A stretch of 64,000 nt of DNA from an uncultured Gammaproteobacteria bacterium (GCA_964411255.1 CAYPKD010000001.1:71331-135330); one strand, 5' to 3'. Positions 3,136 to 60,668 are shown, numbered from the stretch's first letter. Translations and numbers: made by a program. Notes: generated by a model from the letters alone, not told the origin.

Positions 3136-3215
3136 ATCTATTACAGCATTTGATACATGATTTAGGATCTATGATCCATGACTCATGTAATTCTCTCTCC
3201 CCAATTTTCATTTTA
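3136..3215 (-). promoter_or_regulatory. conserved leader RNA with coupled mini-ORFs (MSHGS then MYQML) and TCATGA repeats
   Basis: Strong RBS GGGGAGAGAGA 7 nt before AUG AGU CAU GGA UCA UAG (mini-ORF at 3169..3186, minus). The same architecture recurs at 4033-4096 with MSHRS. Confidence 0.45.
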
Positions 3216-3222
3216 ATATTAT

Positions 3223-3251
3223 ATTATATCATATTTTTTTATAAAAGTCAA
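3223..3251 (-). promoter_or_regulatory. sigma70-type promoter TTGACT-17-TATAAT (minus strand)
   Basis: Reverse complement of 3223-3251 reads TTGACT tttataaaaaaatatga TATAAT: perfect -35 and -10 elements with a 17-nt spacer. Confidence 0.6.
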
Positions 3252-3268
3252 GAGTATCATTAATTATT

Positions 3269-3284
3269 TAGCTAAATTTAGCTA
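3269..3284. promoter_or_regulatory. perfect 16-bp palindrome TAGCTAAATTTAGCTA ~20 bp upstream of the -35 (putative operator/activator site)
   Basis: Perfect dyad symmetry. It is conserved at the same relative position in cassette 2 (4151-4164). Confidence 0.45.
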
Positions 3285-4032: not shown

Positions 4033-4096
4033 TCTGATCCATGATCCAAGATTCATGATCTATGACTCATGACCAAACTCTCTCTCCTATATTTTA
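4033..4096 (-). promoter_or_regulatory. conserved leader RNA with coupled mini-ORFs (MSHRS then MNLGSWIRNS, joined by an AUGA stop/start overlap)
   Basis: RBS AGGAGAGAGAG 7 nt before the AUG (mini-ORF at 4053..4070, minus). TCATGA palindromes are repeated across the leader. Confidence 0.45.
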
Positions 4097-4103
4097 ATAT
4101 TTC

Positions 4104-4132
4104 ATTATAGCATAAATTTTACAAAAAGTCAA
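4104..4132 (-). promoter_or_regulatory. sigma70-type promoter TTGACT-17-TATAAT (minus strand)
   Basis: Reverse complement reads TTGACT ttttgtaaaatttatgc TATAAT: perfect hexamers with a 17-nt spacer. Confidence 0.6.
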
Positions 4133-4150
4133 TCGTATTATATAATATTT

Positions 4151-4164
4151 GGCTAAATTTAGCT
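4151..4164. promoter_or_regulatory. palindrome GCTAAATTTAGC upstream of the -35 (copy 2 of the putative operator)
   Basis: Same dyad as 3269-3284, at the same spacing from the -35 element. Confidence 0.4.
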
Positions 4165-5080: not shown

Positions 5081-5197
5081 ATTATTGCTTATTTATTATA
5101 ATTATATTATATCACATATTGATAAAAAAATCAATATTGACAACAAAAACCCTTTATTGTAAGTTTATATAATCTCTATTTATACAGGAGGCAAAAA

Positions 5198-7954: not shown

Positions 7955-9949
7955 TCACTGCCAAGAGGCAATATTCAGTCCTCCCATAAAATCAGGAGAA
8001 TATACAAACTTCTCAGTTATTACATTACCTAAGATGTCAAAAATTCGCAAATGCGGTTTGTTGTCTTCGCCAGGTACCACCGCAATATCTAAATTATTAT
8101 TCTTTAATAAATCAGTTGCCATTACTTTCACATTACCAGTAAAATTTTCTGAATATGCTAAAAAGCTTACGTTTGCCTGGCCTTTTTGATCAAATATTTT
8201 CACAATTGGTTTTCCAGCTATCGGTCCAGTAATGATTTCTGCAAAACCATCATGATTAATATCAGCTACATCAATATTTACTCCTTTAAAATCTCCACTG
8301 CTATAAGCTACAAATGAACTGATTAATTCACCTTTTTGGTTAAAAATCTTAACTTCATTATTTGATAAACTGGATACTATAATCTCATCTATTCCATTAT
8401 TATCTATGTCACCGCTTGAAATATTACAGCCGTTATTATCATTAAATGGAATAAATGAATTTATTTTTATTATTCTTTCATTAAAAAATAAAACCTCTGT
8501 TTGTCTGCCAGGGCCAGTGCAAACTAATAATTCCTGCGTTCCGTCTTCTTTGATAATCGAACCAAGATCAGATCCGCCTGTATATGCAGTGTTGAAAATA
8601 TAATTACTGGCCAATATTTTTTGATCTAATGATAATATTCTAAGCATTACAGGTGATCCTTCTGCTGGCACAACAGCATATTCAAGATTGCCGTCATTAT
8701 TAATATCTAAAACTTCAACAACCAATCCATCTGCAAATTCATTTTCAAACACAAAGATTTCATCATCTGGCTCAAGTTCCTGATTTAAAATTCTAAAACT
8801 TGCTATGCCATCGCCGGCCTGGCTGACAAGAATCTTTTGGGCAAACCTTGAAGCACTTTTACCATGCTTTAAAATAATATTTTTTAATGATTCATAAATA
8901 TTTAATCTTCCAGGACCCATATCACCTACTTCCATCCAAGGATCAAGCTCGATAGGATCTGCACCCAAAGCCAATGTCTCAATTATCTCTTCTACAGTTA
9001 AACTTCTATTAATTGATCGCATTAATGCAATAGATCCGCTTACAATAGCAGAAGAAAAAGACGTACCTTGCGTATCGTTTCCATAATATTCTTCCTCTGA
9101 TTCAGCCAACTGATGAATCTTCGTACTGAACATGTCTTCTCCTGGCGCTGCGATATCAATACAGCCTTCTCCATAATTACTAAAAACTGATGGATAATCA
9201 TCCACGTCTGTTGAAGCTACACCAATTACCAAAACTTCTGCTCCATCCTTATCATAGCAAACAGGATACATTCTCAAATCATCCAAATCAAATCCTTCAC
9301 CAAACCAGCCATTGCCAGCAGCAGCCACAATAATTACATTTGCCTCTTTGGCTTTATTTATTGCCTGTACTGCAGCAGTAGTGTCATCATAACCAGCTAA
9401 GCTTAAATTAATAACATCTGCGCCATTATCGATTGCATATTCAATTGCTTTAGCCACAGTATCAGAATCTCCATCACCCATTTCATCCAGTACTTTTAGC
9501 GGCATGATTTTTACCTTATTGGCAATACCCACGACACCAATATTATTTTCCATCGCAGCGATTATTCCAGAAACAAAAGTACCATGATGAATAATGTCAT
9601 CAAAATACCAATCTAAATCTGGGACTGGGTCAGGCCAGTCATAAATAAAATCCCAGCCATTAATATCATCTATATAACCATTATTATCATTATCAATTCC
9701 ATCTCCTGCAAATTCATCCATATTAACCCAAATATTTCCAGATAAATCCGGATGCGTAATATCAACGCCAGTATCTAATACAGCCACAATCACCTCTTCA
9801 CTACCTTTTGTGTAATCCCAGGCTTCAAATGCATTAATTTTTTCCAAATACCATTGTTTTTCAACGTATGGATCTGCGGTTTGAAGCAACCCTGTAATTG
9901 GCATTGAAAAAAATACAAGGATAACTAAAGTAAATAAAAATTTTTTCAT
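7955..9949 (-). CDS. secreted subtilisin-like serine protease (S8) with C-terminal FG-GAP/VCBS-like repeats
   Basis: Signal peptide MKKFLFTLVILVFF. Asp/His/Ser motifs VAVLDTGVD, HGTFVSGIIAA and GTSFSSAIVSGSIAL. The start was trimmed to Met35 of the track ORF. Confidence 0.85.
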   Translation of the reverse strand: MKKFLFTLVILVFFSMPITGLLQTADPYVEKQWYLEKINAFEAWDYTKGSEEVIVAVLDTGVDITHPDLSGNIWVNMDEFAGDGIDNDNNGYIDDINGWDFIYDWPDPVPDLDWYFDDIIHHGTFVSGIIAAMENNIGVVGIANKVKIMPLKVLDEMGDGDSDTVAKAIEYAIDNGADVINLSLAGYDDTTAAVQAINKAKEANVIIVAAAGNGWFGEGFDLDDLRMYPVCYDKDGAEVLVIGVASTDVDDYPSVFSNYGEGCIDIAAPGEDMFSTKIHQLAESEEEYYGNDTQGTSFSSAIVSGSIALMRSINRSLTVEEIIETLALGADPIELDPWMEVGDMGPGRLNIYESLKNIILKHGKSASRFAQKILVSQAGDGIASFRILNQELEPDDEIFVFENEFADGLVVEVLDINNDGNLEYAVVPAEGSPVMLRILSLDQKILASNYIFNTAYTGGSDLGSIIKEDGTQELLVCTGPGRQTEVLFFNERIIKINSFIPFNDNNGCNISSGDIDNNGIDEIIVSSLSNNEVKIFNQKGELISSFVAYSSGDFKGVNIDVADINHDGFAEIITGPIAGKPIVKIFDQKGQANVSFLAYSENFTGNVKVMATDLLKNNNLDIAVVPGEDNKPHLRIFDILGNVITEKFVYSPDFMGGLNIASWQ

Positions 9950-11869: not shown

Positions 11870-13657
11870 TTAATTTTTATTCTTAATTTCTTTTTTAACC
11901 ATTTCAATAAATTCTTCAGTCTTTTTCTCAAAAGTATCTTTTTCCCCTCGTTTTCTAATATTCAATACGCCACTGTCTTTTTCCTTATCTCCAAAAACCA
12001 ACATATATGGAACTTTTTCCATCTCAGCTTTTCTGATCTTATTACCTACAGTTTCATCTGAAATATCAGCTTCAGCTCGCAAGCCTGCTTGCTTTAACTT
12101 TATTGCCAATTCTTCCACCAAACTGTTATGCCCTTCTCCAACAGCAATAACTTTGGCCTGGACAGGCGCCAGCCAAACAGGGAAAGCGCCAGCATAATGT
12201 TCAATTAAAATTCCAAGAAATCTTTCAATTGCTCCATAAGCTGTGCGGTGGAGCATAACTGGCCGATGCTTTTTCCCATCTTCTTCAATATAATTGATAT
12301 CAAACCGCTCAGGCATTGAAAAATCCAGCTGAATAGTACCACACTGCCATGTCCGCCCCAGCGAATCTTTTATGTGATAATCAATTTTGGGACCATAAAA
12401 TGCTCCATCACCTTCATTTAGTTCATATTTCATTTTTGATTCGTCCAAAACTTCTTTTATTATTTTCTCACTATTTTCCCAAACCTCATCAGTACCAATT
12501 GATTTTTCCGGCCGTGTTGAAAATTCTACCATATACTCCAAATGAAAAGTGGTATAAATTTCATCAATCAATTCCATTACTTTTTTAATCTCATCTTTTA
12601 TCTGGTTTGGCCTACAGTAAATATGAGCATCATCTTGATGAAACGCTCTTACTCGAAACAATCCGTTTAAAACTCCTGACATTTCATTTCTATGAACCAA
12701 ACCAATTTCTGCCCAGCGCAAAGGGAAATCTCTGTAAGAATGCATGGTTGATTTATAAATTAAAATATTTCCAGGACAATTCATTGGTTTTAATGCATAA
12801 CCATCATCATCTATTTTTGTAAAATACATGTCATCCTTATAATTATCCCAATGGCCTGACTGATGCCATAATTTTTCACGAAGTAAAATTGGAGTTTTTA
12901 CTTCTTTATATTCTTTCCTATGAATTTCATACCAATATTCCATTAAGGTGTGCCAAAGAACCATGCCTTTGGAATGCCAAAACGTAAAGCCTGGCCCTTC
13001 TTCATGAAAGCTAAAAAGATCCAATTCCTTTCCTAATTTTTTATGATCTCTTTTTTCAGCTTCTTCCCGTAATTCCAAATACTGATCCAATTCTTTTTGT
13101 TTGGCAAAAGCCAAGCCATAAATTCGCTGAAGCATTTTATTTTTTTCATCACCTTTCCAATACGCTCCTGCCACTTTATCAAGCGTAAAAGCGCCAATTT
13201 TACCGGTTGACTTAACATGTGGTCCGCTACACATGTCAATAAAACGAATCTTTTCATTTTTATCAACATTTTGAAAAAAACTTAATTTATTTTCTCCTTC
13301 AGATTTAAGCTCTTTTGCCATTTCAAGCTTGTAAACATCTTGATCTTTTTCAAAATCTTTAATTGCCTGATCAATATCTTTATCAAACTGTTCAAATTTT
13401 TGATCTTCTTTAATAATCTGACGCATCTTTTTTTCAATCTTTGGCAAATCTTCTGGAGTAAATGAATGCTCTGTATCAAAGTCATAATAAAAACCTGTGT
13501 CAATTGACGGGCCAATTGCCAGTTTTGTTCCTGGATAAAGCTCAAGCACAGCCTGGGCCATGATGTGAGACAGCGAATGACGCATTGCCTCGAGTTTTGA
13601 ATCTTTCATATTAGATTTAAGTTGAAAGTTGACAGTTGTAAGTTGAAAATTGGACAA
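11870..13657 (-). CDS. thrS: threonyl-tRNA synthetase
   Basis: Class II aaRS motifs. MRHSLSHIMAQAV second-additional-domain, catalytic core and C-terminal anticodon-binding domain are all co-linear with ThrS. Confidence 0.9.
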   Translation of the reverse strand: MSNFQLTTVNFQLKSNMKDSKLEAMRHSLSHIMAQAVLELYPGTKLAIGPSIDTGFYYDFDTEHSFTPEDLPKIEKKMRQIIKEDQKFEQFDKDIDQAIKDFEKDQDVYKLEMAKELKSEGENKLSFFQNVDKNEKIRFIDMCSGPHVKSTGKIGAFTLDKVAGAYWKGDEKNKMLQRIYGLAFAKQKELDQYLELREEAEKRDHKKLGKELDLFSFHEEGPGFTFWHSKGMVLWHTLMEYWYEIHRKEYKEVKTPILLREKLWHQSGHWDNYKDDMYFTKIDDDGYALKPMNCPGNILIYKSTMHSYRDFPLRWAEIGLVHRNEMSGVLNGLFRVRAFHQDDAHIYCRPNQIKDEIKKVMELIDEIYTTFHLEYMVEFSTRPEKSIGTDEVWENSEKIIKEVLDESKMKYELNEGDGAFYGPKIDYHIKDSLGRTWQCGTIQLDFSMPERFDINYIEEDGKKHRPVMLHRTAYGAIERFLGILIEHYAGAFPVWLAPVQAKVIAVGEGHNSLVEELAIKLKQAGLRAEADISDETVGNKIRKAEMEKVPYMLVFGDKEKDSGVLNIRKRGEKDTFEKKTEEFIEMVKKEIKNKN

Positions 13658-13685
13658 CTTATAACTTACAACTTTAATCTTTCAA

Positions 13686-14129
13686 CTATTTATTTATATA
13701 AAATGTCACCGGTCCGTCATTCACCAACTCAACCTGCATATATGCTCCAAACTTTCCGGTTTCAACTTCAATCTCACTTCTAAGTGCCTTAACAAATTTA
13801 TTATAAATTTTTTCCGCGTCAACAGGCAATGCTGCCTGGGAAAAGTCTGGCTTTGTGCCCTTTTTTACTCTCCCATCCAATGTAAACTGTGACGCTACCA
13901 ATACTTTTCCATCGATCTCTTTAATATTTTTCGAAAACTTCTTTTCTGGCTCTTCAAAAAATTTAACAGTTAATACTTTTCTGATTAAATAATCTATTTT
14001 TTCATTATAATCCTCAAGATCATCTTTTGAAATACTTATAAAAATCACAAGACCCTTATCGATTGTACCAGTAACCTCTTCTTCAATGCGAACTGATGCT
14101 TTTTTTACTCTTTGGATTAATAATTTCAT
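13686..14129 (-). CDS. dtd: D-aminoacyl-tRNA deacylase
   Basis: MKLLIQRVKKASV...SQFTL...GAYMQVELVNDGPVTF matches Dtd over its full length. The track ORF's N-terminal extension overlaps the structured leader and was removed. Confidence 0.85.
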   Translation of the reverse strand: MKLLIQRVKKASVRIEEEVTGTIDKGLVIFISISKDDLEDYNEKIDYLIRKVLTVKFFEEPEKKFSKNIKEIDGKVLVASQFTLDGRVKKGTKPDFSQAALPVDAEKIYNKFVKALRSEIEVETGKFGAYMQVELVNDGPVTFYINK

Positions 14130-14132
14130 AAA

Positions 14133-14345
14133 ATAAAAAAACCAAGACAAATAATGCTTGGGGCCCTTCCGGGTGGTTCCACCCAATTTCCAGCCGAAGC
14201 CAATATGTGGAGGGGTAGCTCTGCTGCCCCGACTTTGGCTGAGGCTGACTCTCATTCACTACTTCCAGCTTAGTTAGGTTTATACACCTAATTCCTCTGT
14301 GGAAGATTAGTTGGTAGCCAATCCAATCACCTTTAGTAGTGACTT
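14133..14345 (-). promoter_or_regulatory. structured GC-rich leader with a T-box-like motif and terminator upstream of dtd-thrS (candidate Thr T-box riboswitch); contains repeat family Y copy A at 14187-14248
   Basis: The minus-strand RNA contains AAAUUGGGUGGAACCACCCGG (compare the T-box consensus AAUUAGGGUGGNACCGCG). A hairpin CCAAG..CUUGG + U7 follows, ending 6 nt before the dtd ATG. Confidence 0.35.
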
Positions 14346-14434
14346 TATTATACATAATTTTTTAATATTAAACAATCTTAATAAACAAATTTTCCCAAAA
14401 ATCTAACATATTTTCCTAAATTTACACAAAATGC

Positions 14435-24557: not shown

Positions 24558-24619
24558 ATACTTTCAATCCCTCCATATTATTTCCTGTAATATCCCTAAC
24601 ATTCCGTAAATCCGTAACC

Positions 24620-25597
24620 TCAAACAAACCATTTCTCAATCTCAGCAAACTCCACTTTTTTTCTATCCATAATATATTTTTTCTTATCCAAAAACTTTTT
24701 TTTATTATGTCTGATTTCTTTTATTGCCCGCAAACTACCCTGTTCAGCAAAGAGAATATACAAAAATTTCTTTATTTCATATAATCTTATTCGCCAATTG
24801 AGTTTTGGTACATTTTTTAGTAATAAATAACGATGGTTTCTATAAGAATGGAAATTGGCAAATTTGGGCTTTTGCTTTCGGTTGCTTGCAACTTGTCGAT
24901 CAGTTAAATTTGCAGCTGGTCCGCTGACTGACCGGTCATGAAAAGCTATTGCCTTTGGCATTCGCCAGGATTGCCATCCTCTCCAGCGGAGTCGGTAAGC
25001 TAAATCAATATCTTCTTTATACATCCAAAAATCTTCATCAAAAAACTGTCCGTTTTCAACCACATCTTCCAATGCCTGCCGTCTATACATCGGCGCTGCT
25101 CCTGATACTCCAAAAATCTCTTGATCTTTATCAAATTGGCCATTATCCATTTCACCGCTGCCCAGATCAACAATGCGATGATTTTTATATATTGCCAAAC
25201 CTGCGCTATCTATATAATTTGTTTTTTGCTTATTTTGCCAGCTCATTAGCTTGCCAGTCACTGCCCCAGCCTGCGGGTGTCCATCCATAAAATTTGCCAA
25301 CTTTTCAATAAAACGTGATTCTAATATAATATCCTGATTTAACATTAATACATAGTCACTTTTTGTCCAGTGCACTGCCTGATTATGGGCTTTGGCAAAA
25401 CCATGATTTTCCCGATGCTCAACAATTTTTATATGAGGATATTTTTCCTTAATAACTTCAACTGTATTGTCTGTAGAAAAATTATCAATAATCAAAAGAC
25501 TATAGTCCTTATAGGTCTGGTTGAATAAGGCTTTTAAACAGTCTAAAACATATCTTTCACCATTCCAGGTGACTAAATTTACAGAGACTTTTGACAT
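24620..25597 (-). CDS. glycosyltransferase family 2 (rhamnosyltransferase-like)
   Basis: VNLVTWNGERYV...LLIIDNFSTDNT. Start taken at MSKVS. Confidence 0.8.
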   Translation of the reverse strand: MSKVSVNLVTWNGERYVLDCLKALFNQTYKDYSLLIIDNFSTDNTVEVIKEKYPHIKIVEHRENHGFAKAHNQAVHWTKSDYVLMLNQDIILESRFIEKLANFMDGHPQAGAVTGKLMSWQNKQKTNYIDSAGLAIYKNHRIVDLGSGEMDNGQFDKDQEIFGVSGAAPMYRRQALEDVVENGQFFDEDFWMYKEDIDLAYRLRWRGWQSWRMPKAIAFHDRSVSGPAANLTDRQVASNRKQKPKFANFHSYRNHRYLLLKNVPKLNWRIRLYEIKKFLYILFAEQGSLRAIKEIRHNKKKFLDKKKYIMDRKKVEFAEIEKWFV

Positions 25598-31637: not shown

Positions 31638-31686
31638 GCCTTCTTTCCCCCTTAAGCCACCTTAAGCCTTCTCAAGCCCTCTTAAA
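31638..31686. repeat. GC-richer repeat family Z (cttaagcc/ctcaagccctct motif), copy 1
   Basis: gccttctttcccccttaagccaccttaagccttctcaagccctctt. Related copies lie at 39296-39364 (inverted) and 39811-39872. Confidence 0.45.
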
Positions 31687-31757
31687 TAATATTTTACCAT
31701 AATTTCATAAATCATGGAACATGGAACACATAGCATATAACAAAAAAGCACAGAACT

Positions 31758-37417: not shown

Positions 37418-37442
37418 AATAATTAGAAATTAGAAATTGGGA

Positions 37443-39380: not shown

Positions 39381-39791
39381 TTATTTATTTTTCCCCTCAT
39401 TATCTTCCTCTGCCTTTTTAATTTCTAAAGATTGAATTGTTCTATCTAATAAATACATTGTTTTGATAGCACGATCTTCAAAGTGTTCATATAAATCATC
39501 ATTAATGTATCCTTTTCTTAGAACTCGTCTAACTCGTTCTTGTAATTCGCCATTTGATCTTTTGCTCATCCTTAAAAAACGCAAATATTCAGCAATATAC
39601 CCACTGTAATATCCTTCAACAAAATTAGCTCCTATAGAATCTGATGCGTTGTCTATTTGACTCTTTATCTTATATTCATTTTTTGGGATTCGTTTTAAAA
39701 TATCCTGTACAATTCTATCTAATTCATCTATACTTTGCCAAACAATCATTTTCCTATGGGCATAATTGTTATTTTTATATTGATTTTCCAT
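39381..39791 (-). CDS. four-helix-bundle protein (23S rRNA intervening-sequence protein family)
   Basis: MENQYKNNNYAHRKMIVWQSIDELDRIV...IGANFVEGYYSG...LRFLRMSKRSNGEL is the characteristic family signature. Confidence 0.7.
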   Translation of the reverse strand: MENQYKNNNYAHRKMIVWQSIDELDRIVQDILKRIPKNEYKIKSQIDNASDSIGANFVEGYYSGYIAEYLRFLRMSKRSNGELQERVRRVLRKGYINDDLYEHFEDRAIKTMYLLDRTIQSLEIKKAEEDNEGKNK

Positions 39792-39810: not shown

Positions 39811-39872
39811 GCCCTCTCTTCCTATTTACATCTCAACCTCTCAAGCCTTCTTCTGCCCTCTCAAGCCCTCTA
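39811..39872. repeat. repeat family Z, right arm flanking the four-helix-bundle gene
   Basis: gccctctcttcc...ctctcaagccttcttctgccctctcaagccctcta. Confidence 0.45.
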
Positions 39873-42619: not shown

Positions 42620-42728
42620 TACTGCCATCCTTTCCAAACAATATTGTAATAAAATAAATTATCATAATATTTTGGAAATGTCAATAATAAAAAAAGAGCA
42701 TTTTATAGACATGCTCAGGTCATTTGAG

Positions 42729-43522: not shown

Positions 43523-43609
43523 TGGTGCGCGGAGAGGGAGTTGAACCCTCACGCCCAAATGGACACTGGCCCCTCAAGCCAGCCTGTCTACCAATTCCAG
43601 CACCCGCGC
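43523..43609 (-). tRNA. tRNA-Leu (anticodon GAG)
   Basis: Minus strand reads GCGCGGGTGCTGGAATTGGTAGACAGGCTGGCTTGAGGGGCCAGTGTCCATTTGGGCGTGAGGGTTCAACTCCCTCTCCGCGCACCA. 7-bp acceptor stem, anticodon loop UUGAGGG, long variable arm, GTTCAAC T-loop and encoded CCA. Confidence 0.9.
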
Positions 43610-54043: not shown

Positions 54044-57000
54044 TTACTGTTCGCTCCAGGGCAAATTAACATCCTTTGCCTTTTCATGGTGCTCAAAGTC
54101 ATCACCAGAAATATCTTCTTTTATCTCTTGAGCGGTCTCTTCTCCATGCCATTCATGCGGTAAATTTCGCACAGGTCTTCTTTTAACTTCTGGCTCTACT
54201 TTTTTATCAAGTTTTGGCTCTAGAGCTTTTGGCGTTCCATGTTTTTCCATTAAAATATTTTGAGTTAATGCTTCGCCTTTTTCCTTATTCTGTTCAATTA
54301 AATCACTCCTAAAATTTTCGTAACCATTCTTTTCACATGTAATATAATAAACATTTTTCCCTACTAAAAAGCTATAACGACCATGTGGATCTGTAACTTG
54401 GGTTTCTAATAACCGATTATATTTATTGTCATATAATCGAACAACAGTTCTGCCAAGAGGCTTTTTATTTGTTTTGTCAGCCACAATACCCCAGCCTTTG
54501 GGCTTCTTTGGCACAGCCAACCTCTTAAATAATGAGTACAATAATAAATGAATAACTAATAATGCAAAGAATAAAGCGCTTGGTTTTATTAAAAATACTA
54601 TAAAAGTAGCAATTGGCCCTAATATGGCCATAACCTTTTGAATTTTTCGCAACAAGTAAACCGTTAAAATTTTTGAACTTGGCTTTGGCTTTTTATCAGC
54701 ATCTAAAGGTATATTTGGTGTTATTACAGATTTCTCATCAACTTGAATACTTTCTCCATGGTATATATCAATGTAAAATAAATCTTCTTTTTGATCAGCT
54801 AAAATCTGAGTTGGGAAAACATACCCTTTTTTAAATACTTTAATATAATAACTGCCAGGCTTCACTACAAAAGAAAATCTGCCTTCTTTATCCGTTACCT
54901 TTGTTTGAATCAACTTATTATTAACTACGTTATATAATCTCAATATTGCCAAATCCACCGGCTGCTTTGTTATTGAATCGTATACTACCCCGTATTTCTT
55001 TCTTTTCTTTTTAAAAATAACAAGCAAAGGTTCAGAAAAAAGGAAAAATAAATATGGTAAAAGTCCTGCTAACGAAGCAATTGATAAAATATTAAACGCA
55101 GTCACTGCAGCAATTGCCGGTGTTCCGAACTTGTCTGTTGCTTCTTCAACGTCAGGATTATTAAATATATTTTCAATTATAAATGATTCATTAATACTCT
55201 TTATAAAATCTGATTCAACAATCCTGTTTCTTAAATCTTTTAAAGCCTCAACAATTTCTGCTGCTGCGACAATTTCAATTTCCTCAGTCTGTTCATTATT
55301 ATCCAATTCATTTTCACAATCTGGATCTGCCAAATCGACTAAACCATCGCCGTCGTTATCCAATCCATCTGAACATTGCGGTAGGATCAATTCATCAGTC
55401 TCATCATCATCTTCAGTACTTCTGCAGCCAGGATCTGATGGATAATCAACCAAACCGTCATTGTCATTATCAATATCATCTGAACATTGATAGATAACTA
55501 TTTCATCTATCTCATCATCATCTTCCAAACTTTCACAACCAGGATCTGTAGGCCAGTCTGTTAACCCGTCATTATCATTATCAATGCCATCAGAGCATTG
55601 AGTGATTAATTCTTCTTCAACTTCATTATTATCTTCTGGGCTATCGCAACCAGGATCTGCCGGATAATCTATAAAACCGTCATCATCATTGTCTACACCA
55701 TCTGAACACTGGGTCACAGGCGCTTCATCTTCTTCACTATTATCCTGCTCACTAGAACAGCCAGGATCTGCCGGATAATCTACTAAACCATCATTATCAT
55801 TATCAGTATCATCTGAGCATTGTGGCACGAACTCAACATTAAACTCATTATTGTCTTCAGGGTATGAGCAGCCCGGATCTGCGGGAAAATCGATTAAGCC
55901 ATCGTTATCATTATCAATATTATCTGAACAAGCTGGCAAAACTTCGTCTATTTCATTATCATCTTGGTCACTATCACATCCAGGATCTGCAGGGTAATCA
56001 ATTAGGCTGTCATTATCATTATCTATACCATCTGAACATTGCGGTAAAATCACCACATCAGCCTCGTCATTATCCTGATCGCTATCACAACCAGGGTCTG
56101 CTGGATAATCAACCAAACTGTCATCGTCATTATCAATGCCATCTGAACACTGAGGTAAAGCACTTGAAGTGGTAAAAATAAACAAATCAGTAAAATCAGT
56201 TTCTTCACCATCACCATTTCTGGCCTTTACCCTAAACGAATAATCAGTTGATGGAGACAATCCTATATTGGTCCAGCCAGTATCTGTAATCCAGTCAGAA
56301 TTTTGGCCAGTATCAATATTTTCAAACCAAAGAGTTGTCAAACCATCTCCTAAGTTTGGTAAACTTCCATTTGCCTCAATGGTAATAAAATCACTTCCAG
56401 CATCAACTAAAACCAATTCATCTGGTTTATTTATTAAAGTATATTTCGAAGCACTTTCTGACCAATCAGACTGATCAGTATTATTTTGTGCCATTACCTG
56501 AAAAGTATACTCAGTATTTTCAGATAAACCTGCAATATTTTTCCCAAGCAAACTGCCCCAGCTATTATATGATTGCCATTCTTCAGTCATATCCAGAGTG
56601 CCATCAGACTGCAAATAAAGTCCGGTTGTTGTTTCATTTATCAAATATAAAACATCATCCTCATTACCATTAGGATCTAAAACAATATTTAATATTGACG
56701 GTGATATGGCCAGCAAAGTTGGCGCGCCAGGAACATACAGCACAGCATCTGACAATGTAGCAAAAGTTTGATCAGCTGATTCAGCAGGATTAAAATTACT
56801 GTCGCGCACCCAAATTTTAAAATGATATTCAGTGTCAGGAATTAAATTAGCCAAATCTACACTGTGTGATGTTAAAAAATTATTATTATCAACCTGAGAT
56901 CCATAACTATCTGTTTCACCATAATAAAGTATAGACGTTGCCAATTCATCTGTTTCCCAAGTAATGGTAACTGAAGTGGTAGTAATATTAATTACCTGAA

Positions 57001-57160
57001 TATTTGAAATTATTGGCGGAGTCTGATCACCTGGCGGCTGACCAGGAGCAACAATAGAGATTGAGACATTGGCATCCTCTGTAGCTGCAAAACCAAAAGC
57101 AGACCATAATAAAAATATGGTTAGAGTACAAATAAAAATCCATCTATTTTTTCTTCGCAT
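54044..57160 (-). CDS. large (1038 aa) secreted/TM protein with fibronectin-III-like N-domains, ~9 tandem Ca-binding DNDxDG repeats and two carboxypeptidase-regulatory-like (transthyretin-fold) domains
   Basis: Repeats QCSDGIDNDNDGL(I/V)DYPADPGC. RLYNVVNNKLIQTKVTDKEGRFSF and RLYDNKYNRLLETQVTDPHGRYSF are CarboxypepD_reg-like. Confidence 0.75.
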   Translation of the reverse strand: MRRKNRWIFICTLTIFLLWSAFGFAATEDANVSISIVAPGQPPGDQTPPIISNIQVINITTTSVTITWETDELATSILYYGETDSYGSQVDNNNFLTSHSVDLANLIPDTEYHFKIWVRDSNFNPAESADQTFATLSDAVLYVPGAPTLLAISPSILNIVLDPNGNEDDVLYLINETTTGLYLQSDGTLDMTEEWQSYNSWGSLLGKNIAGLSENTEYTFQVMAQNNTDQSDWSESASKYTLINKPDELVLVDAGSDFITIEANGSLPNLGDGLTTLWFENIDTGQNSDWITDTGWTNIGLSPSTDYSFRVKARNGDGEETDFTDLFIFTTSSALPQCSDGIDNDDDSLVDYPADPGCDSDQDNDEADVVILPQCSDGIDNDNDSLIDYPADPGCDSDQDDNEIDEVLPACSDNIDNDNDGLIDFPADPGCSYPEDNNEFNVEFVPQCSDDTDNDNDGLVDYPADPGCSSEQDNSEEDEAPVTQCSDGVDNDDDGFIDYPADPGCDSPEDNNEVEEELITQCSDGIDNDNDGLTDWPTDPGCESLEDDDEIDEIVIYQCSDDIDNDNDGLVDYPSDPGCRSTEDDDETDELILPQCSDGLDNDGDGLVDLADPDCENELDNNEQTEEIEIVAAAEIVEALKDLRNRIVESDFIKSINESFIIENIFNNPDVEEATDKFGTPAIAAVTAFNILSIASLAGLLPYLFFLFSEPLLVIFKKKRKKYGVVYDSITKQPVDLAILRLYNVVNNKLIQTKVTDKEGRFSFVVKPGSYYIKVFKKGYVFPTQILADQKEDLFYIDIYHGESIQVDEKSVITPNIPLDADKKPKPSSKILTVYLLRKIQKVMAILGPIATFIVFLIKPSALFFALLVIHLLLYSLFKRLAVPKKPKGWGIVADKTNKKPLGRTVVRLYDNKYNRLLETQVTDPHGRYSFLVGKNVYYITCEKNGYENFRSDLIEQNKEKGEALTQNILMEKHGTPKALEPKLDKKVEPEVKRRPVRNLPHEWHGEETAQEIKEDISGDDFEHHEKAKDVNLPWSEQ
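55300..56160 (-). repeat. coding tandem repeat (~114-bp units, 8-9 copies) encoding CSDxxDNDxDGLxDYPxDPGC modules
   Basis: Visible periodicity in both the DNA and the translation. Confidence 0.7.
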
Positions 57161-58711: not shown

Positions 58712-58842
58712 AACCCCAGATTATTTATTTATTACAAATAAAACAGCAAATTTGTAATTATTTGTAATCTTTTAAATCTCTTCTTTATTATTTGTAATTA
58801 TACAAAAAAAACAGCTCTTTGGCCATTTTTTTATTAACAAAT

Positions 58843-58905
58843 TATCCAGCAGAAGCCATAACGTGGAGAGGTAACTTCTGCTGCCCCGACTTTGGCTGAG
58901 GCTGA
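58843..58905. repeat. GC-rich repeat family Y copy B (immediately 3' of argS)
   Basis: tatccagcagaagccataacgtggagaggtaacttctgctgccccgactttggctgaggctga is ~85% identical to 14187-14248. Confidence 0.55.
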
Positions 58906-58909
58906 GATA

Positions 58910-60613
58910 TCACATCTTCTCAAGCCACTCCACATTAAGCAAATCAAGTCCCACTCTCAGTCTCTTCCTCACTTTCTGAGCTAGATTAAACCTGGCAGCT
59001 TTTAATTCTTCGTTTTCAGCCCTAATTATTGAATGTTTTTGATAAAAATCATTAAACGTTTGCGCTAAATCAAATAAATAATTACACAAAACTGATGGAT
59101 CATTTTCCTTATATGCTCTTTTAATTTCATTCTCATTATTTGCTAACAGTTTAAGCAATTCTTTTTCCTCAGTTTCTTTAAGCAAACTATAATCAGCATC
59201 ACCAACTTTTTTAATTTTTTCTTTAATAGAGTTGATTCGAGCAGATGTATATAAAAGATAAGGGCCAGTTTTACCATCAAAGCTCAATGCTTCATCCATA
59301 TCAAAAGTTATCACCTTATTATTTCCAAACTTTAGCATGCCGATCTTTATTGCTGATAAAGAAATTTTTTCTGCTACATCTTTGACTTTGTCATCATCCC
59401 AATCTTTATGCCTCTTTTTCGTTTCTTCAATACTTTTTGTTAGCATTTTATTAAATAACTCGTCAAAAGAAACAATATTTCCTTTTCTGGATGACAGGGC
59501 GCCTTCAGGCAGATTTACAAAATCATAAGGAATATGCACCATACTTTCTTTAAATCCTGCTAATTCCAAGGTCTTAAATATTTGTTTTAAATATAAAGAT
59601 TGACGATTATCAACAATATAAATACTTTTGTCAGCTTTCTTTTTTGCTTTTTTATAAGCCAATGCCAGATCACTTGTTGAATATAATGTAGTACCATCTG
59701 ATTTTAAAATAAGCAGCACATCCAAATCATATTTTTTCAAATCCACTATGATAGCTCCCTGATCTTCTTTAGCAATACCTTGCCTGATCAATTGACTAAC
59801 GATTTTTCTTCCTTTATTTAAAACATCACTTTCAAAATACCAGGCATCAAATTGTATTCCCATAAGCCCGTAAATCCTTTCAAAATCTTCAATGCTCCAC
59901 TTCTGAGTTTTTTTCCAAATTTTCATTATCTCTTTGTCTTTTTTCTCAAGTTTTATTAAAATATCATCAATCTCGTCTTTTAATTTTTCATCTTGGTCAA
60001 GTTTCTTAACGGCTTCAGTATAAATTTTTCCTAAAAAATTTGTTTTGTTTTCTTTTGGCTCTTCATCTTTATGAAACTTTAAATACGCCCACAAACATTT
60101 GGCCACATGAAGGCCCACATCATTAACATAAGTGGCAGCAATAACTTTATCACCAATATATTTATTCAAATTAACAATTGCTGCACCTAAACAAGCATTT
60201 CTCAAATGCCCAACATGAAATTCTTTGTGCGTATTTGGCTGAGAATATTCAATCATCACTTTTTCAGGCCGAAGCCTGCTCCCTTTGCCGAGGGGAAACT
60301 GCGTTTCCCCGACTTTCCCAGGCTGAGGACTGCCCTCAATCAATTCTTTCGCCCAAACCTCTGCTTTCAAATAAAAATTGATATACGGCCCCGTTGCTTC
60401 AACTTGTTCCCAAACCTCATTTGAGCCTAATTTTCCAGCCATTTTTGCAGCAAATTCAGCAGGATTTTCTTTAGCTAATTCAAAAACTGGCAAACTCAAG
60501 TCACCCATTTTAACATTTGGTGGAAATGTAAAATTTTCAGGCTTAATATCTTTAAAAGCTTGATCAATTTCTGCTAACTTTTCAATTAATTGTGTTGTTA
60601 TACTATTTAACAT
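58910..60613 (-). CDS. argS: arginyl-tRNA synthetase
   Basis: HVGH (HIGH) motif, class I core, DALR anticodon-binding domain, and the typical C-terminal ...KM. Confidence 0.9.
   Translation of the reverse strand: MLNSITTQLIEKLAEIDQAFKDIKPENFTFPPNVKMGDLSLPVFELAKENPAEFAAKMAGKLGSNEVWEQVEATGPYINFYLKAEVWAKELIEGSPQPGKVGETQFPLGKGSRLRPEKVMIEYSQPNTHKEFHVGHLRNACLGAAIVNLNKYIGDKVIAATYVNDVGLHVAKCLWAYLKFHKDEEPKENKTNFLGKIYTEAVKKLDQDEKLKDEIDDILIKLEKKDKEIMKIWKKTQKWSIEDFERIYGLMGIQFDAWYFESDVLNKGRKIVSQLIRQGIAKEDQGAIIVDLKKYDLDVLLILKSDGTTLYSTSDLALAYKKAKKKADKSIYIVDNRQSLYLKQIFKTLELAGFKESMVHIPYDFVNLPEGALSSRKGNIVSFDELFNKMLTKSIEETKKRHKDWDDDKVKDVAEKISLSAIKIGMLKFGNNKVITFDMDEALSFDGKTGPYLLYTSARINSIKEKIKKVGDADYSLLKETEEKELLKLLANNENEIKRAYKENDPSVLCNYLFDLAQTFNDFYQKHSIIRAENEELKAARFNLAQKVRKRLRVGLDLLNVEWLEKM
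60266..60330. repeat. GC-rich repeat family Y copy C, inserted in-frame inside argS (encodes GSPQPGKVGETQFPLGKGSRLRP)
   Basis: CCUCAGCC..AAAGUCGGGG-hairpin-CCCCUC..GGCUUCGGCCUG is shared with copies A and B. The segment is GC-rich and sits in the linker before the HIGH motif. Confidence 0.5.
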
Positions 60614-60668
60614 AAATTTAATAAATATTTTCCGTAATATCCGTAAAATTCCGTAAATCTGTAAACTC

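Follow-up and report, generated by a model that had tools for sequence, protein, structure and literature searches.

Rickettsia palindromic elements (RPEs) are dispersed, hairpin-forming repeats that lie between genes and also in-frame within housekeeping genes, where the surface peptide is tolerated, and their carriers are patchily distributed (PMC10969869). MITEs (transposable elements of the miniature inverted-repeat type; Correia, ERIC, BOX/RUP/SPRITE, Nezha) are small and non-coding, have inverted arms and a stable transcript fold, and occupy regulatory regions, with occasional in-frame fusions; BOX elements have been noted with T-box-like motifs (PMC10969869). Here we describe Y, a family of palindromic repeats (57-69 nt, ~60% GC) with three copies in a 64-kb stretch of DNA (CAYPKD010000001.1:71331-135330; hereafter the window, i.e., the whole stretch, within which copies were sought unless another sample is named). 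Copies A and B are outside coding sequence and copy C is inside argS, the gene for arginine--tRNA ligase. Y is probably, though far from certainly, a non-autonomous GC-rich palindromic repeat, similar to repetitive extragenic palindromes (REPs), MITEs and RPEs, that belongs to one narrow Patescibacteria lineage and takes over hairpin and linker slots.

REPs and the REP doublets forming hairpins (REPINs) are imperfect GC-rich palindromes without target duplications that lie behind genes at terminator positions; they are extragenic, occur in hundreds, and are mobilised by IS200/IS605-like REP-associated tyrosine transposases (RAYTs). Y is likewise an imperfect GC-rich palindrome without target duplication, and forms an inverted doublet at one related locus; it differs in that one of its three copies in the window is intragenic, copies are spaced at about one per 21 kb, no RAYT (Y1 HUH transposase) gene was found in the window, and the fold has an extra outer stem. 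With MITEs, Y shares small size, a non-coding nature, terminal inverted arms and multiple copies, but it lacks target-site duplications, has a low copy number, and no cognate insertion sequence or transposase is seen in the window. The functional analogy to the Rickettsia elements in a different lineage, proposed in a preliminary description of this DNA, holds: Y lies both between genes and in-frame in a housekeeping gene, encodes a surface peptide there, and has patchy carriers. Size and lineage set it apart, with 57-69 nt against ~100-150 bp for RPE-1 to RPE-10 and a home in Patescibacteria rather than Rickettsia; in addition, Y has one in-frame case and few copies, whereas 44 RPE insertions are reported in R. 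conorii, and it replaces resident sequence instead of simply interrupting it. By its anatomy as read from sequence, i.e., inverted arms, no coding capacity, dispersed copies and strain-level presence or absence, Y is a non-autonomous palindromic repeat of the REP/MITE/RPE kind.

The three minus-strand copies were all found where they had been described (Table 1). Copy A reads CAGCCTCAGCCAAAGTCGGGGCAGCAGAGCTACCCCTCCACATATTGGCTTCGGCTG on the minus strand; copy B has seven small differences from it and is otherwise the same, the longest exact run common to the two being 29 nt, and copy C is collinear with both and more diverged. A three-way MAFFT alignment has 74% mean column identity and brings out the motifs CCTCAGCC, AAAGTCGGGG, CCCCTC and GGCTTC, and the spacers AAAGTC and CTCCACA, which are loops or unpaired, are conserved between copies. 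When the 64 kb were searched with an nhmmer profile of the copies, A, B and C were the only matches (E = 1.8e-17, 3.4e-16 and 1.5e-14); the reported DNA similarity thus survives proper alignment. The GC content of the copies is 61% (A), 57% (B) and 64% (C), compared to 31.5% in the rest of argS and 34.5% in the window. No Rfam family matches Y, either in the whole window at gathering thresholds or in the copy A region at E<=10.

The proposed Y fold consists of arms that pair over 5+4 bp, a 2-bp middle helix and an 8-bp inner GGGG...CCCC hairpin. The arms are imperfect inverted repeats of 11-12 nt; those of copy A surround a 2-nt internal loop. Over eight copies from five loci, 90.5% of the cells of the fold are paired, compared to 27-58% for slid partners, and double-sided changes occur at five pairs; the arms (helix 1) are 88.9% paired, with three double-sided changes. 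The structure of Y is conserved with compensatory changes, and the swap of hairpin sequence between copies with pairing kept, GGGGAAAC/GTTTCCCC against GGGGCAGC/GCTACCCC, is real. Copy A folds better as the plus strand (z -4.06). Across the copies, four C-A mismatches stand against six G-U wobbles, which favours neither strand; the counts agree equally well with a palindrome at the DNA level and with a structured RNA. Other kinds of element were ruled out: a diversity-generating retroelement repeat, since the differences between A and B are not adenine-specific; an integron attC site, by inspection, for lack of RYYYAAC/GTTRRRY cores; a tRNA-like element or tmRNA, since ARAGORN finds only a tRNA-Leu at 43523-43609; and an intrinsic terminator in the case of A and C, which have no T-run, copy B being followed by A-rich sequence.

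Copy C sits in a full-length reading frame of 567 codons that is kept through the element, as had been described. ArgS carries PF03485, PF00750 and PF05746 and has 3231 homologues which, where named by source, come from Patescibacteria, Falkowbacteria and similar; the minus strand carries nearly all genes of the window. The stretch in which argS departs from its orthologues spans 60266-60334, 69 nt or 23 codons (GSPQPGKVGETQFPLGKGSRLRP, residues 94-116). It joins the N-terminal and catalytic domains, between a helix (residues 84-93) and the first Rossmann strand, 17 residues ahead of H133 of the HIGH motif. In an AlphaFold2 model of ArgS (mean predicted local distance difference test, pLDDT, 89.3), residues 94-117 are coil, with pLDDT <50 at residues 97-104 and 106-114, and the segment is thus predicted to be a disordered surface coil. 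Copy C shows a feature of RPEs, a dispersed palindrome that is in-frame in an open reading frame (ORF) and whose surface peptide is tolerated.

Orthologues were compared in a 24-sequence ArgS alignment and, at the junctions, at the DNA level (P1, the window; P2, locus L063; P3, L002; P4, L003; P5, L001; P7, L005; P9, L004). The Y segment is carried by the window, P2, P3, P4 and P9, and is absent from P5, P6, P7 and P8; orthologues without it stand at 65-82% identity, and the segment is lineage-specific. Its junctions are conserved (ATT GAR | ... | GAR AAR GTG). At the same junctions, P5 and P7 have 39 AT-rich nt (ACT AGA AAT TCG AAA TTA GAA ATT AGG GAA GGG AAA AAA), P6 has an unrelated 11-codon linker, and the protein linker of P8 equals that of P5/P7 in length (13 aa); more distant ArgS homologues have short, K-rich linkers. 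The 23 codons had been taken as an addition to the protein. They are present, but they stand in place of a 13-codon linker, and the net gain is 10 residues.

The Y-free linker of P5 and P7 (L001 7793-7831, L005 4578-4616) is itself a run of three GAAATTN heptamers. Further occurrences of this motif, sharing as many as 16 identical nt, lie between genes on related contigs (L138 9270, 9458 and 9931; L140 334-433) and at one place in the window (37421-37440). Repeats of more than one kind may therefore use the ArgS linker as a slot.

Inside argS, the hairpin is kept at the nucleotide level and the peptide is not. Strain L063 has an argS that is 94.9% identical in DNA to that of the window and an in-gene Y copy that is 100% identical. 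In P3, the hairpin is preceded by a single additional base and followed by two more, which switch the frame that is read (GRGSRATPPQKDG, not KVGETQFPLGKGS) and leave the DNA hairpin unbroken; the core GTCGGGGCAGCAGAGCTACCCCTCCACA of P3 matches 28/28 with copy A of the window rather than with copy C, and third codon positions of P3 and the window argS are 67% identical. P4 has lost 12 nt of the hairpin in-frame, and P9 has kept a stem of the C type, with another loop. Between the window and P9 or P4, the segment shows 80-88% identity, compared to 55-61% at third positions. Given the frame shift, the deletion, a segment identity above that of third positions and a coil with pLDDT <50, the peptide would be a tolerated by-product, and the enzyme is probably intact with the element-encoded peptide as a passive surface loop. 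These comparisons imply that conservation acts on the nucleotide sequence, or that other members of the family are copied into it and renew it. They also support the view that the argS segment is a derived, lineage-specific copy of a dispersed nucleotide repeat that replaces the resident linker; the orthologues without it, its GC content, the P3 frame shift and the P4 hairpin deletion show that it is not an ancestral protein segment.

The distribution of Y does not follow the ArgS tree. Over residues 118-470, P9, which carries Y, is 90-93% identical to P7, which does not, and its identity to P1-P6 is no more than 60-72%; P5, without Y, falls inside the P1-P6 group (80-91% identity). Both ArgS clades thus contain Y and non-Y alleles, and the junctions are identical. 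The first 94 residues do not set the clades apart (62-81% identity in all comparisons), which suggests that recombination around the N-terminal domain and linker carried argS alleles across lineages; repeated insertion at one site may be a less economical account of the patchy allele distribution. P9 and P7 are only 77% identical over residues 1-94, and ArgS is a mosaic (P0001-P0009).

The argS stop codon ends at 58910, and copy B begins 6 nt behind it; next comes the conserved promoter-like site of the following gene (58797-58825). The slot between stop codon and promoter-like site is variable. In L063, it holds an unrelated ~95-nt GC-rich palindromic element instead of copy B, and L003 and L001 have a third, shorter hairpin there. 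This slot is the clearest sign of recent turnover. The L063 element (1988-2085, GTGCCACTG...CAGTGGCA) has no second copy among the sequences compared.

Copy A lies in the leader of the dtd-thrS operon. With the search restricted to the leader stretch, the Rfam T-box model RF00230 matches 14156-14336 over its full length (17.2 bits, E = 0.062), with copy A as a greatly enlarged Stem III. Orthologous leaders in relatives are divergent and match the full model length with 31.3 and 30.0 bits (E = 2.7e-5 and 5.9e-5). Because these scores, in the window and in the relatives, are far below the Rfam gathering score of 93 bits, we call the leader T-box-like; a simple terminator/promoter scan of the window did not call its -10 and terminator sites. 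Downstream of copy A come AAATTGGGTGGAACCACCC GGAA GGGCCCCA and then a bulged terminator stem with seven T; AAAUUGGGUGGAACCACCC-GGAA-GGGCCCCA aligns to the T-box/antiterminator (UGGN bulge) of the model and is overlapped by the downstream stem and U7.

The same antiterminator/terminator arrangement occurs in three relatives (L137, L138 and L140), whose leaders were reached via Dtd homologues, an identical Dtd protein having given the same strain only. ACU followed by A is conserved in the four orthologous leaders before dtd-thrS and fits a Thr specifier, a candidate chosen by inspection rather than with a validated Stem I model. The Stem III of L137 and L140 is simple, an 18-19-nt hairpin (TGGCCAAATTTTTGGTCA; CGTCCTTATGCAAAGGACG) between flanks, ...GAAGAGT and AAAGTTGGGTGG, that are as in the window; by this alignment, copy A is in the place of the resident Stem III hairpin. 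The preliminary description had called copies A and B intergenic. Both are outside genes, but neither is in anonymous DNA, A being a T-box-like Stem III and B the occupant of a hairpin slot behind the argS stop.

The leaders also bear other lineage-specific insertions: in L138/L139 (9380-9860), AT-rich repeat DNA adds ~190 nt to the Stem I/II region and a GC-rich stretch adds ~70 nt to the antiterminator loop, and L137 (~2950-2985) has 32 nt in this loop, where the window has a GGAA tetraloop. Four genomes of this Patescibacteria lineage share a conserved T-box-like leader and its candidate Thr specifier; a literature search for T-box riboswitches and the Candidate Phyla Radiation (CPR) found no paper combining the two.

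An extra or enlarged T-box helix that is restricted to one lineage is reported for stem Sa of staphylococcal glyS T-boxes (PMC9177973). Copy A is similar, an enlarged helix in a variable part of a T-box leader in one lineage. Stem Sa belongs to the terminator/antiterminator domain, and we do not know of it as a dispersed repeat; the Y Stem III, by contrast, is one copy of such a repeat, another copy of which is found inside a coding region. A literature search found no enlarged T-box Stem III that copies a dispersed repeat.

Table 1. Positions of the Y copies, their host gene and the T-box-like leader (window coordinates, except for the relatives in the last row).
Feature	Position	Strand	Details
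Copy A of Y	14191-14247	minus	CAGCC...GGCTG, 57 nt; arms CAGCCTCAGCC / GGCTTCGGCTG; inner hairpin 14212-14230
Copy B of Y	58847-58904	minus	58 nt; degenerate inner hairpin 58868-58887
Copy C of Y	60265-60332	minus	arms CAGTCCTCAGCC / GGCTTCGGCCTG; inner hairpin GGGGAAAC-GCA-GTTTCCCC at 60292-60310
argS, arginine--tRNA ligase	58910-60613	minus	567 aa; HIGH = HVGH, residues 133-136; host of copy C
T-box-like leader of dtd-thrS	14135-14352	minus	Rfam RF00230 match, fold and conserved features
-10 TATAAT (perfect)	14347-14352	minus	upstream of copy A
Candidate Thr specifier ACU	14272-14274	minus	by inspection
T-box sequence GGGTGGAACCACCC	14171-14184	minus	leader feature
Terminator stem and T-run (seven T)	ends 14135	minus	bulged stem; 6 nt before dtd start
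dtd	13686-14129	minus	PF02580; operon 11870-14129 downstream of leader
thrS	11870-13657	minus	thrS Pfam domains; same operon as dtd
Orthologous T-box-like leaders	L137 2795-2955; L140 83-265; L138 ~9350-9900		upstream of dtd-thrS

In 192 kb of related Patescibacteria DNA, there are nine Y copies in all (profile E 1e-10 to 1e-18); the only other profile matches there, in L138/L139, are not significant (E = 4.6). A pattern scan of JGI metagenomes gave 102 matches, among which the only real loci are L063, with the argS copy, and L090, with two copies. In L090, a 7.3-kb locus, the two copies form an inverted pair (1669-1732, minus; 1739-1804, plus), 6 nt apart, between two unrelated genes, and one of them has a perfect GGGGTAGC/GCTACCCC stem. 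In the second copy, L090b, comparison to the P3 copy shows the core hairpin inverted relative to the arms, as though the centre had been turned over between its inverted arms. Two patterns found no real match in IMG/VR and thus no sign of a phage origin. A chimeric all-frame peptide query for further in-frame cases returned nothing at E<=10, a search in which 20-aa matches cannot reach significance among 5.8 billion proteins.

The course of events that we favour would run as follows. Copies of Y would settle where an extended hairpin or a floppy peptide is tolerated and would replace the resident sequence, the slots taken being the T-box Stem III (A), the stem-loop behind the argS stop (B) and the disordered ArgS linker (C); in argS, Y happens to be 23 codons without a stop, and the enzyme would stay intact. 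Spread and homogenisation may proceed by gene conversion or template switching, as copying of the recombination type from one hairpin site to another, or through an unseen trans-acting enzyme. The lack of target-site duplications together with the replacement of resident sequence points to recombination-type copying rather than cut-and-paste, and such copying is also favoured by the match of the P3 core to copy A, the inverted core of L090b and the replacement of hairpins as a whole. Homologous recombination would then have moved the argS allele among related lineages, producing the patchy distribution.

The comparisons show that the copies are homologous, that orthologues with and without Y have identical boundaries, that the nucleotide hairpin is conserved and the peptide is not, and that a slot turns over in near-identical strains. 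Several results nevertheless weigh against a mobile repeat. Its numbers are very low: Y is a small, non-coding, multi-copy element, with three copies in 64 kb and two in the 7.3 kb of L090, but few loci elsewhere, and a degenerate-pattern scan of 185,579 GTDB representative genomes gave 26 chance matches, none confirmed by the profile, in unrelated, mostly GC-rich genomes (47-65% GC where measured). No target-site duplication is present at three comparable junction pairs, where a resident linker, hairpin or element is replaced; no transposase-like ORF was recognised among those of the window, and Pfam returned no transposase-like family for ten ORFs to which no function could be given by eye. 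The identical boundaries in two ArgS clades fit one old event followed by recombination as well as they fit repeated mobility. Y had been proposed to be a selfish element family; the dispersed repeat stands, and selfishness or mobility is deduced only from presence or absence and from the turnover of slots, against few copies, no duplications and no transposase. Finally, all three copies in the window lie in the sense strand of aminoacyl-tRNA synthetase (aaRS) transcripts, and the identity of copy A to the core of the P3 argS copy, at 28 of 28 positions where synonymous sites stand at 67%, could equally mean function.

The last two points support an account that we consider unlikely though by no means negligible, in which Y is a functional cis-acting RNA or DNA module under selection, a binding or processing site for a common factor in aaRS mRNAs that serves as the thrS T-box Stem III and is structured in the argS ORF and at its 3' end. 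The conservation of the in-gene segment beyond third positions, even though it encodes a disordered loop, and the compensatory changes that keep pairing would also follow. This account has to accommodate close relatives that lack Y at all three places, the in-frame deletion of the hairpin in P4 and its degeneration in copy B, mismatches and wobbles without strand preference, and the absence of an Rfam match. It also sits poorly with L090, where one of the copies is antisense and both lie between genes for 189-aa and 435-aa proteins, the 1.6 kb inspected showing no aaRS gene. A related and more doubtful idea makes Y a portable helix module of RNA that selection would keep at the nucleotide level and that template switching or gene conversion would copy from one hairpin into another; in aaRS transcripts, it would act as Stem III of the thrS T-box and as a structured, dual-coding element in and behind argS, with a shared binding or cleavage site perhaps coupling expression. 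A protein-level adaptation of ArgS, a selected loop of 23 residues whose likeness to copies A and B is secondary, is very improbable. The frame is kept in five of five carriers, and the flanking PQPG and LRP residues recur in four of the five, but these residues are the translated repeat arms, P3 has a frame shift in the middle of the peptide and P4 a deletion there, and the segment is a low-confidence coil, with 64% GC in a 31.5% GC gene, that is missing from sister orthologues. Convergence of independent GC-rich terminators or stem-loops is hardly credible: each slot does hold unrelated GC-rich hairpins in other strains, but exact runs of 29 nt and 28 nt between copies, profile E down to 1e-18 and conserved loops and spacers indicate common descent. 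A non-autonomous repeat that takes over slots accommodates these observations best.

The window contains other repeats. A 43-nt repeat of three TTACGGA-like units (86% identical) lies at 60626-60668, in the 55-nt tyrS-argS spacer, and at 24579-24621, between two glycosyltransferase-like genes, and may be a shared protein-binding site. Tandem 10-nt repeats of the CCTTAAGCC/CTCAAGCC type occur at 31638-31692 and 39837-39871, the latter set just upstream of a gene for a 23S-rRNA-intervening-sequence protein (39381-39791, PF05635). Promoter-like blocks (TTGACT...TATAAT, minus strand, 72-80% identical) stand ahead of small ORFs at 3213-3283, 4094-4164, 5096-5134 and 42646-42697, and some of these ORFs lie in the GC-richer stretch at 2-4 kb (41.6% GC). 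ORF 54044-57160, for a predicted surface protein of 1038 aa, contains eight tandem 111-nt (37-aa) CSDGIDNDNDGL-DYPADPGC modules at 55279-56155.

Patescibacteria have tiny, streamlined genomes. We know of no description of small palindromic repeats in this group, and a literature search found none. Y shows that small palindromic repeats do exist in Patescibacteria, and that they can apparently sit in-frame in an essential synthetase without harm and take over a structural helix of a riboswitch; Y is also a concrete marker of strain-level turnover. Annotators should be aware that repeats may be the source of GC-rich "loops" in proteins of the CPR and of oversized helices in its leaders. The points most worth following are the replacement of slots and the nucleotide-level conservation inside a coding region, and the lineage offers a natural test of how far the T-box Stem III and the ArgS inter-domain linker can change.

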